A stretch of 9,313 nucleotides of DNA from the IMG/VR virus record IMGVR_UViG_2698536657_000018, positions 1 to 9,313 of that record; one strand, 5' to 3'. Positions 3,001-6,000 of the stretch are shown piece after piece; position 1 is the stretch's first letter; each line of letters opens with the position of its first letter. Made by a program: the position numbers. Source of the stretch: a virus. Its lineage: Duplodnaviria > Heunggongvirae > Uroviricota > Caudoviricetes.

Positions 3001-6000
3001 TGGGTTATACGGGAATGATGCAAATATTCTCCAAGATTCATTGTTCACCTCATGTTATGTGACCATGAATATTAATAGCATTGTTATTTTTAAAAGTAAA
3101 TAGCATCGCTATTTCAAAGAGATTAATAATCTTATTAGAATTGAAGGTATGAAAAGAAAACCCCTGTCAGAGATCGACCTGCAAGCCGCCCAGAGACTGA
3201 AAGAAATCTGGACGACGAAAAAAACTCAACTTGGGTTAACCCAAGAGCGTGCGGCAGAAATTCTGGGTTTTTCGACACAAGGGGCAGTAAGCCATTATCT
3301 AAATGGTCAGACACCTTTAAATCTAGAGGCTGTTATCAAGTTCGCTGGGTTGCTACAAGTTCCGCCTGAGTCAATTAGACCAGATATGGCAGACTTGTTA
3401 CGAATTGTAAGGATGTACCCCCAAGAACTGCAGCAGGATAATGTTGTCGCTTTACCCGCAGAGATGGAACAATCGGAAAACGAACTTCCGTTTAATATAG
3501 AACCTATAGAGCGAGATTTGATCCAGACGTTCAGGGCTTTCCCAAAAGAAGACAAAGAGAAAATGCTTAAGGAAATGAAGGAGAAAAAAGAATCAATTGA
3601 AGAAACCGTTGCGCGGTGGCTAGAGGCGCAAAAAGGTCGTCGCGCCTAATCTGAGGAGGTTAGAACATGAGTACAGTCCTTTCCCCGATAATTTCAGAAT
3701 TTGAAACAATCGAACAAGAAAACAGCTATAACGAATGGTTACGCACCAAAGTGGCAGCAAGCCTCGCAGACCCCCGTCCTGCAATTCCGCATGACGAAGT
3801 AATGGCTGAAATGGAAAACCTTATTGCGCAAATAGCTTCGACGAACAGGAGTGAGTAATGCTGCCCATTTTATGGCTACCTTCTGCGCGTGATGATTTGC
3901 GTCAGATCGTAGCCTATATTGCCAAGGAAAACCCTCCCGCTGCACGTAGACTAAAAATACGCATTGAAACATCAGTTTTGTCACTTACTGAACACCCTTA
4001 CCTGTATCCACCAAGCGAAAGAGCTCTAGGCCTTCGTGAGATAGTGACCCATCCTAACTACATAATACTTTACCGAGTAACAGCATCTAACATCGAGATC
4101 GTAAATGTAGTTCACTCACGAAGGCAGTATCCAAACAAAAGCTGTTAATCATTCCTACCAACAACCACCTTCGGGTGGTTTTTTTTCTTACCTCCAAAAA
4201 ACAATAGCATTACTATTTACAGAATAAAATAGCAGTGCTATTGTTTATTCATCACCCACCCTCCCCACAGAACGCAGGGCAATACTTCGAGTTACCAGGC
4301 AGTGGTCAGGGGGTAAGTAGCCAGCCCGAGGCGTAAGAACATGACGGCAGGGTTCAACTTTAATAACTATGCAGCAGGTTTTTGTTCCGCTACCCCGGCG
4401 TTAAGGGGAAATGAGGTCAACATGGATACTATCGATCTTGGCAACAGCGAATCTCTGGTATGTGGAGTATTCCCCAACCTGGACGGCACGTTTACCGCGA
4501 TGACGTATACCAAAAGTAAAAAGTTTAAAACCGAAGCTGGCGCGCGTCGCTGGTTAGCCAGAAACACTAACTGATTAGCACCAGTAAAAACAGGTTGCCA
4601 CTGGTTAATTTACCCTGAAAAGTCAGGGTATAACACGAAAGCGCACGGCGAAGCTCTTTCCCTTAGAAGGCTTGTCGTTAGATTTCTTCGAACGTGCGCT
4701 TCCGGTTGTGGCAATCCGCGAAATGGCGCGGCGGTAAGTATGGCTGGGGTTTCCTCCATTGCTCCAGAAAATGCACCGGGTTGTCAGGTTGACCATACGA
4801 TTAAGTGACAGCCCCGCCACAATACCCATGTGTAGTCTTTGGTGGCATCAGTTCTACTCCGTGACTGCTCTGCCACCCTTTTTAAAGTGAATTTTGTGAT
4901 GCGGTGAATGCGGCTAAGCGCACGCGGAACAGTTAAAACCGTAAAGTGGTCGTTTACGGGGCGTAACGGGCATACTTCTGTATTCCGGCGTTAATTGTTA
5001 ACTGGTTAACGTCACCTGGAGGCACCAGGCACCACATCACAAAATTCATTGTTGAGGACGCGATAATGGAAACGTTATTACCAAACGTTAATACGTCTGA
5101 AGGGTGTTTTGATATTGGTGTTCTGCTCAGTAACCGGGAGTTTACTGAAGATGCCATTAAGATGAGAAAATATGAGCCTTATCTTCTCAATGATAATTCC
5201 ATACTCTCCAGAATTGCCCTTCTTAAACTTGGTATTTTCGGAGGGCAGCAGTGACTTCTGCATTTGCACTGGTGATGACGGTTTTTCTTATAACGGGTGA
5301 GCCACAGAATGTGATTACCGGAATTTATGCCAGTAAAGAATCATGCCTCCGTGCAAGAGACGAGCAAAAAATTTCTGGCGAATGCCTCCCGTTAAAAAAA
5401 GTATCGCTGTACCTGAATAACGAAATACCGGCTGGATAACCCGCCAGCCATATTAACGCCATACCAACGGATTAAAAATGCCAGCAATGGCAGGGATTCG
5501 TTCACCCTGAAATCTGTAATGAGGTTAAAACAAAATGAGTAAAGTCTTTATTTGCGCCGCTATTCCTGACGAACTGGCAACAAGGGAAGAAGGCGCTGTG
5601 GCTGTAGCCACAGCCATTGAAGCTGGCGACGAACGCCGTGCTCGAGCAAAATTTCACTGGCAATTCCTGGAACATTATCCGGCTGCTCAGGACTGCGCTT
5701 ATAAATTTATTGTCTGCGAGGATAAACCCGGCATACCCCGCCCTGCCCTCGATTCCTGGGATACCGAATATATGCAGGAAAATCGCTGGGATGAGGAGTC
5801 AGCTTCCTTTGTACCGGTCGAACCTGAATCCGATCCGATGAACGTCAATTTTGACAAGCTGTCCCCTGAAGTACAGAACGCAGTCCTGGTTAAATTCGAC
5901 ACATGCGAAAACATCACCGTTGATATGGTGATTAGCGCACAGGAATTACTACAGGAAGACATGGCAACATTCGGCGGACATATCGTTGAAGCGTTTATGA

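Follow-up and report, generated by a model that had tools for sequence, protein, structure and literature searches.

A putative OL/PL region with two operator-like palindromes upstream of the dicF/dicB operon in a Qin/CP-933P-like E. coli prophage

Repressible early-left promoters have been described in two prophages of E. coli, CP-933P (Sp12, in E. coli O157:H7) and Qin (in E. coli K-12). In CP-933P, the promoter PL933P is repressed approximately 100-fold by PaaR2 and likewise by YdaS (PMC8630535). Jurenas et al. described PaaR2 as an analogue of the lambda repressor CI "despite lacking sequence similarity" (PMC8630535). In Qin, DicA represses the promoter dicBp, and deletion of dicA raised dicBp activity 22-fold (PMC10448788). 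The Qin literature explicitly treats dicBp as an analogue of the early-left promoter (PL) and describes DicA as a repressor without cleavage domain that is relieved by the antirepressor Rem. With these experiments in two sister prophages, the layout of left operator (OL) and PL is already the established model for this family. Here we describe a related locus on a stretch of 9,313 bp (positions 1 to 9,313 of the IMG/VR virus record IMGVR_UViG_2698536657_000018; the window), which is a segment of a lambdoid, Qin/CP-933P-like E. coli prophage. What is new in the window appears to be its immunity specificity, with a hybrid lambda CI/PaaR2-type repressor, within a known kind of switch.

The region under study, 4203-4244, lies between the genes for a regulator of 166 amino acids (aa) and a toxin-antitoxin pair on one side and the dicF/dicB operon on the other. 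We propose, with a rough probability of 85%, that it represents the OL/PL of a lambdoid prophage and that the 166-aa regulator, a CI analogue, would silence the dicF/dicB operon through the two palindromes located there. The proposal is based on the sites themselves, the geometry of promoters and terminator, the identities of the genes, conservation, and co-variation at the level of the module. The sites and promoters at OL and at the right operator (OR), which contains the early-right promoter (PR) and the promoter of the regulator gene (PRM), are as follows (scores in bits are from a position weight matrix).

3074-3088: OR site 1, AATAGCATTGTTATT; 24.4 bits; overlaps the -10 of PR; one mismatch; conserved in relatives
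3099-3113: OR site 2, AATAGCATCGCTATT; 25.5 bits; touches the -35 of PR and the -35 of PRM
4203-4217: OL distal site, AATAGCATTACTATT; 24.2 bits; overlaps the -35 of PL by 2 bp; one mismatch (G10 to A); conserved
4228-4242: OL proximal site, AATAGCAGTGCTATT; 26.0 bits; extends over spacer, TG element and 4 bp of the -10 of PL
4163-4188, plus strand: intrinsic terminator ending the regulator-paaA-parE operon; stem-loop at 4163-4180 (stem of 7 bp, loop of 4 nt), then a T-run; stem kept in relatives
4216-4244, plus strand: PL, from the promoter scan; -35 TTTACA (4216-4221), 17-bp spacer, extended -10 TGc-TATTGT (TATTGT at 4239-4244)
4245-4421, plus strand: 5' leader of 177 nt from PL to ydfA; shared among immunity types, the module boundary lying just after the -10 of PL
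3072-3100, minus strand: putative PR; -35 TTTACT (3100 to 3095), 17-bp spacer, TGc-TATTAA (3077 to 3072); would drive the cro-like gene and ydaT
3113-3141, plus strand: PRM; TTCAAA, 17-bp spacer, TAGAAT (3136-3141); hexamers invariant in 7 alleles

The sites were identified by a motif scan for AATAGC-N3-GCTATT with at most one mismatch over the whole window, using 200 shuffles as a null. Exactly four matches were obtained where 0.01 would be expected by chance, and none of the 200 shuffles gave four. The start-to-start spacing is 25 bp in both pairs (3074/3099 and 4203/4228). A position weight matrix derived from 20 sites of five alleles placed the four sites at 24-26 bits; the next best score in the window was 7.9 bits, and the 95th percentile of the best shuffle score was 13.4 bits. 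This gap (24-26 versus 7.9 bits) indicates that the window contains exactly four strong sites, with the putative operator consensus aAATAGC-N3-GCTATTt.

The second site pair adjoins the terminator found directly after the end of parE (stop codon, 4148) and encloses a promoter of the extended -10 type, with a predicted transcription start near 4251. On the plus strand, the cassette reads AATAGCATTACTATT-TACAGAATAAAAT-AGCAGTGCTATT-GTTTATT, and both hexamers and the TG element are invariant in 7 alleles. Thus, a second set of the same sites overlaps TTTACA/17 bp/TATTGT, which reads away from the far side of the repressor operon. An initial annotation of the window had noted a pair at 4203-4217 and 4228-4242 with the 25-bp spacing of the first pair, overlapping a TTTACA/17 bp/TATTGT promoter just after the parE terminator; the motif and matrix scans confirmed the former, and the promoter and terminator scan recovered the latter. 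Only one promoter-like site occurs in 4240-9313 (6.6 expected), and none other lies upstream of ydfA. Apart from a chance-looking match inside the exonuclease gene, no intrinsic terminator was predicted on the plus strand in 4240-9313 by a scan that also did not report the terminator stem of DicF itself.

The OR pair is located in the 107-bp spacer between the divergent cro-like (2778-3041, minus strand) and regulator (3149-3649, plus strand) genes, together with PR and PRM. Read on the minus strand, OR has the sequence AATAGCGATGCTATT-TACTTTTAAAAAT-AACAATGCTATT-AATATT, corresponding to an operator, the -35 TTTACT, the 17-bp spacer and TGc-TATTAA. PL on the plus strand and PR on the minus strand align in register, each with an operator, a -35 and an operator overlapping the -10; judged by this alignment, the two are clearly paralogous versions of the same cassette. 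In both, the right half-site TGCTATT doubles as the extended -10, so that a bound dimer would occlude the polymerase. The centre of the site at 3099-3113 falls at about -42/-43 relative to the PRM start. This is the geometry of lambda OR2. The ATG of the regulator gene at 3149 is 7 nt after the -10 of PRM, and its mRNA is probably leaderless, for which paaR2 and cI mRNAs are precedents (PMC8630535). A further palindrome, TAATAAtcTTATTA, is located at 3124-3137, 23 bp from OR site 2, where it overlaps the spacer and -10 of PRM; it is invariant in 7 alleles, and the relative L009 has ATTAGCAATCTTATT in its place, with 3 mismatches to the operator. This palindrome may be a weak OR3-like site or a site for another factor, either of which is unproven, the score of 2.6 bits not being significant.

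The relatives L001-L006 (92-99% DNA identity), and also L009, whose regulator is 80% identical, retain the four sites, the two spacings and the PL hexamers; the four-site arrangement is thus present in every sampled relative carrying this regulator. The outer AATA and TATT are invariant in all 20 sites, with variation at inner and central positions, and a 6-bp indel occurs among relatives directly upstream of the OL pair. The regulator allele was found in 70 of 5,426 complete E. coli genomes (about 1.3%) in identity classes of 99%, 96% and 92%, including O104:H4 and O145:H28 outbreak strains. A 55-bp OL query recovered only 30 genomes; with so short a query and such divergent alleles, this number cannot be relied on.

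A comparison across immunity types provides stronger evidence than this conservation among close relatives. Four other immunity types show the same gene order, and in each of them a repeat particular to that type is found at OR as well as at OL.

Qin (K-12): TGTTAG...CTAACA
L008 / L010: ACAATAAAAAACTGT
L011: AACTTTAAAAGTG
L012 (CP-933P type): GTTTAGT

L012 was assigned to the CP-933P type because the primers in Table S3 of Jurenas et al. map onto it; their PL933P clone covers L012 3973-4090, beginning at the parE2 stop and ending immediately ahead of the shared leader, and has its exact equivalent in window 4149-4250. In each type, the -35 is flanked by two OL copies, with overlap onto the -10, and the window's matrix found nothing above 9.5 bits in the loci of the other types. 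The downstream sequence (CCCACCCCGCCCCACAGAACGC...) is common to all types except Qin, whose own leader is shorter. Only the N-terminal domain of the regulator and the Cro-like protein differ along with the repeat, while YdaT, PaaA, ParE and YdfA stay 61-96% identical (YdaT, 74-89%). This pattern indicates that an immunity cassette reaching from the cro-like gene to the -10 of PL is exchanged as a unit, in which operators and DNA-binding domains change together. It also indicates that YdaT, PaaA and ParE, which do not vary along with the repeats, are not the binders. The leader at 4245-4421 has a C-rich start, is near-identical across prophages of differing immunity and is more conserved than the operators. 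It was considered as a structured RNA or nut-like element and rejected as such, as there was no relevant Rfam match, a fold z-score of 0.79 and no covariation.

Residues 2-82 of the regulator align to residues 3-82 of the lambda repressor, N-terminal arm included (phmmer against PDB: 1LMB, 1LLI; E 1.6e-9). Pfam finds only HTH_3 and HTH_31 and no S24 peptidase (autocleavage) domain. At the C-terminus, 44-64 aa show 50-61% identity with the regulators of the four other immunity types. The alignment with the CP-933P-type regulator is limited to the C-terminal 44 aa (50% identity, E 2e-13), with no similarity between the N-terminal DNA-binding domains; with DicA, there is a weak C-terminal similarity (E 0.002). 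No match in the PDB sequence search anchors the C-terminal domain, and no PaaR2 structure was matched. None of 50,697 phage records encodes the full-length regulator; they contain only homologues of its N-terminal domain. By these alignments, the regulator appears to be a natural hybrid, its DNA-binding domain of the lambda CI type being joined to a C-terminal domain of the PaaR2/DicA type, which points to probable domain shuffling among non-cleavable prophage repressors. The helix-turn-helix region of the Cro-like protein is 33% identical to that of the regulator (E 5e-5), with the recognition helix TQGMVSH as compared to TQGAVSH, and this protein probably recognises the same four sites.

The genes of the window were assigned by Pfam, Rfam and PHROG matches. 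On the minus strand are a P-like helicase loader gene, an O-like replication gene (DnaT domain), and the ydaT-like and cro-like genes. The plus strand has, in this order, the contiguous genes for the regulator, a PaaA2-family antitoxin and a ParE toxin, the terminator and second site pair, and then the genes from ydfA to int.

2356-2781, minus strand: ydaT-like gene (CII analogue); Pfam YdaT_toxin, E 7e-10; PHROG 163 'CII-like transcriptional activator', E 2e-46
2771-2788: exact YdaT box TTGATT-N6-AATCAA (PRE-type), TTGATTTTCATGAATCAA; 0 mismatches; 0.01 expected; once in the window
2778-3041, minus strand: cro-like gene, 87 aa, helix-turn-helix; Pfam HTH_3
3149-3649, plus strand: gene of the 166-aa regulator; lambda CI-type N-terminal and PaaR2/DicA-type C-terminal domain, as judged by alignment
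3667-3858, plus strand: paaA2-type antitoxin gene; Pfam PaaA2, 78.8 bits
3858-4148, plus strand: parE-type toxin gene; Pfam ParE_toxin, E 4e-18
4422-4574, plus strand: ydfA (DUF1391); Pfam E 5e-27
4827-4878, plus strand: DicF small RNA; Rfam RF00039, 61.1 bits (gathering score 48)
5066-5254, plus strand: dicB, cell-division inhibitor gene; Pfam DicB, E 1.4e-36
5251-5439, plus strand: ydfD-like gene (DUF1482); Pfam E 6.6e-16
5535-8006, plus strand: 3'-5' exonuclease gene, 823 aa; Pfam Rv2179c-like, E 2.5e-67; PHROG 2082
8074-8316, plus strand: excisionase gene (xis); PHROG 1266, E 1.9e-23
8294-9313, plus strand: integrase gene (int); open reading frame (ORF) whose homologue in L001 is annotated as phage integrase

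The nearest relative of the window is E. coli strain JNEC-KY176 (98.6% identity). The YdaT box lies across the junction of the cro-like gene and ydaT, taking in the stop of the former and the start of the latter. A footprinted OM site of CP-933P YdaT has the same sequence and position (PMC9986795), which suggests that the window also carries the establishment-promoter part of the circuit. Genes ydfB and ydfC are absent from the window. The stretch between ydfA and DicF (4575-4826) is an indel hotspot in comparisons of L001, L002, L003 and L005 with the window; ydfB/ydfC or other small ORFs are variably present there in relatives, the window being the short form. Between DicF and dicB, a sub-threshold Rfam match to STnc100 occurs at 4890-5043 (30.9 bits, gathering score 47). 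Inside the O-like gene, two clusters at 1831-1879 and 2101-2160 each contain five TCGTGACA-like repeats about 10 bp apart; with 17 matches in the whole window (6.9 expected), these clusters resemble the origin iterons of the lambda O gene.

The window shares with CP-933P (PMC8630535) the gene order ydaT-ydaS / paaR2-paaA2-parE2 / PL933P, the PaaA2 and ParE families, a probably leaderless regulator-antitoxin-toxin mRNA, the YdaT box at the ydaS/ydaT junction, a terminator followed by the PL/OL cassette directly after parE, the same downstream leader and the C-terminal domain of the regulator (50% over 44 aa), and neither regulator has an S24 domain. In contrast to PaaR2, the regulator of the window has an N-terminal domain that is unrelated to that of PaaR2 and homologous to lambda CI; its operators are AATAGC-N3-GCTATT and not of the GTTTAGTAA type (L012 carries GTTTAGT repeats), with two detectable sites per set as compared to three or four, and the Cro-like protein is of the HTH_3 family and only 30% identical to YdaS. 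Moreover, PL of the window is followed by intact ydfA-DicF-dicB, whereas Jurenas et al. assigned no function to the ORFs downstream of PL933P.

Qin dicC-dicA-dicBp (Bejar et al. 1988, as cited in PMC10448788; PMC3441716) resembles the window in having a short, non-cleavable CI analogue directly followed by a repressed promoter driving ydfA-(ydfBC)-dicF-dicB-ydfD, matched in the window by the order ydfA, DicF, dicB, ydfD. YdfA is 82% identical, and DicA-type palindromes flank the dicBp -35 TTGACC as the window's sites flank TTTACA. In Qin, however, no toxin-antitoxin genes separate the repressor from PL, the operators read TGTTAG...CTAACA, of which there are none in the window, the leader is shorter, and the N-terminal domain of DicA is P22 C2-like (PMC3441716).

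With lambda, the window has in common a true homologue of the CI N-terminal domain, operators of 15-17 bp with an odd central base, one site at about -42/-43 from PRM, a probably leaderless repressor mRNA, passenger genes after the repressor (rexAB in lambda, paaA-parE in the window) and two operator sets flanking the repressor operon. Neighbouring operators are 24 bp apart in lambda, close to the 25 bp observed here. Unlike lambda CI, the regulator lacks the S24 autocleavage/cooperativity domain; each set has two sites, not three, the OL-OR distance is about 1.13 kb instead of about 2.3 kb, no N gene or nut site was identified in the window, and YdaT takes the place of CII.

From this arrangement we infer how binding, repression, cooperativity, looping and transcript extent would be organised. 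Dimers of the regulator would bind the two 15-17-bp palindromes at OL, where the distal one adjoins the -35 and the proximal one lies over the TG element and a portion of the -10. Occupancy of OL would exclude RNA polymerase and silence the rightward-reading early-left operon of ydfA, DicF, dicB and ydfD, and silencing would probably extend to the exonuclease gene, xis and int. The PL transcript may pass the DicF terminator and reach xis-int, judging by gene orientation and the lack of other predicted terminators. At OR, the regulator would bind the identical pair and turn off PR (cro-like, ydaT); from its position at about -42/-43, it would probably stimulate its own leaderless PRM operon, with paaA-parE as passengers. 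The PaaR2-type C-terminal domain probably oligomerises, which would enable cooperative binding of sites 25 bp apart; octamer formation has been reported for PaaR2 (PMC8630535). OL and OR may also be joined in a loop of about 1.13 kb, and the Cro-like protein would most likely compete for the same four sites. As the regulator lacks an S24 domain, derepression is expected by a bistable switch or an antirepressor and not by RecA-mediated cleavage.

The lambda OL/OR logic of one repressor flanked by two operator sets, as put forward in the initial annotation, gains support from the comparison, considering the cassettes in register, the co-variation and the homologous promoters. The same applies to the view that the early-left promoter in front of ydfA-dicF-dicB is overlapped by the second set, since by analogy the positional homologues PL933P and dicBp are repressed promoters. 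The further suggestion that toxin-antitoxin regulation is coupled to division inhibition and excision is better framed the other way about, as the regulator is a CI analogue and the toxin-antitoxin genes are passengers like rexAB. With these genes in the CI analogue's own operon, the regulator operon is expected to be on while PL is off.

Several observations weigh against assigning the region to OL/PL or limit the evidence for it. The matrix scan found no third operator at OR or OL, as opposed to three per set in lambda, Qin and CP-933P, and a degenerate third candidate at 3121-3137 scored only 2.6 bits. PR was read from the sequence; it is a weak match to the consensus and below the threshold of a simple promoter scan. 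The relatives are close (mean column identity in intergenic regions, 92-97%), so that site conservation is only weakly discriminating and constitutes modest evidence. The terminator of DicF sits on the way from PL to dicB, and a gene for an antiterminator was not identified in the window. Finally, the longest exact match between OR and OL in the window is 9 bp, no better than the background of 6-9 across types. Although L008 (17), L011 (14) and L012 (11) stand out by this match length, it was rejected as too blunt a measure of co-variation, and motif and matrix were used instead.

Given the similarity of the recognition helices and the equally strong repression of PL933P by YdaS and PaaR2, the sites might mainly be targets of the 87-aa Cro-like protein instead of the 166-aa regulator. 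We regard this as highly unlikely: the regulator has a bona fide CI-type DNA-binding domain, its N-terminal domain changes with the operators across immunity types and, to our knowledge, both proteins share operators in every studied lambdoid switch. Binding of the Cro-like protein complements the proposed silencing by the regulator rather than replacing it. It is likewise very improbable that the OL pair serves only as a looping partner for OR, with inactive hexamers at 4216-4244 and dicF/dicB driven from elsewhere. The -10 TATTGT is indeed imperfect; however, the -35, -10 and TG element are invariant across alleles, the region upstream of ydfA lacks any other promoter-like site, the single one in 4240-9313 compares with 6.6 expected, and the homologues PL933P and dicBp are active, repressible promoters, no other promoter having been found in the Qin region (Ragunathan et al.).

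The clear paralogy of the PL and PR cassettes would also fit a second pair without function, left over when the PR cassette was duplicated. Decay would have erased the pairing, whereas five immunity types show this paired arrangement, each with a sequence that differs between types but matches within the type, and the arms of the repeats do not vary, which leaves this explanation extremely unlikely. Type II antitoxins usually autoregulate, and YdaT is a DNA-binding protein encoded nearby, so a PaaA-ParE complex or the CII analogue YdaT could be imagined as the binder. Yet PaaA2 has no DNA-binding domain (PMC8630535), PaaA, ParE and YdaT are 61-96% identical across types with unrelated repeats, and the YdaT box TTGATT-N6-AATCAA differs from the sites and is present in a single copy at 2771-2788. 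Binding by these proteins was therefore rejected, with next to no probability left for it.

A related N-terminal domain is that of CI of Stx2a-converting phages of the Lyz12581Vzw type (Oslovirus), with 54% identity and the recognition helix TQGAVS; the Cro proteins are related as well. Unlike the regulator, this CI is a full-length, 240-aa S24-type repressor that is presumably SOS-cleavable, and the flanking genes differ. Lyz12581Vzw (L013/L014) has AATAGTCTAGCTATT in OR and ATTAGTCTCGCTATT beside a TTGACT hexamer in the left intergenic region; these related palindromes serve as a separate pointer to the binding specificity. In JNEC-KY176, a 96% relative of its cI (L015, 1501-2325) is co-resident with this prophage type. 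Sharing a recognition helix and AATAG...CTATT half-sites, the regulator and the Stx2a phage CI could conceivably cross-talk, which we consider unlikely; as the Lyz12581Vzw sites reach only 9-13 bits with the window's matrix, cross-recognition is speculative. If it occurred, the uninducible regulator might damp PR and PL of the Stx phage, leading to lower Shiga-toxin phage induction or to superinfection immunity, and loss of the Stx phage CI during SOS might affect dicF/dicB expression.

No new regulatory principle is revealed by this locus. Among the short, non-SOS prophage repressors by which expression of the toxic division inhibitors dicF/dicB is kept off, it represents a further, uncharacterised immunity specificity, and it shows that immunity specificity in these elements is swapped as a cassette ending just after the -10 of PL. 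The hybrid regulator links the CI and PaaR2 repressor groups by sequence homology, and the arrangement speaks for paaA-parE as passengers of the prophage switch.

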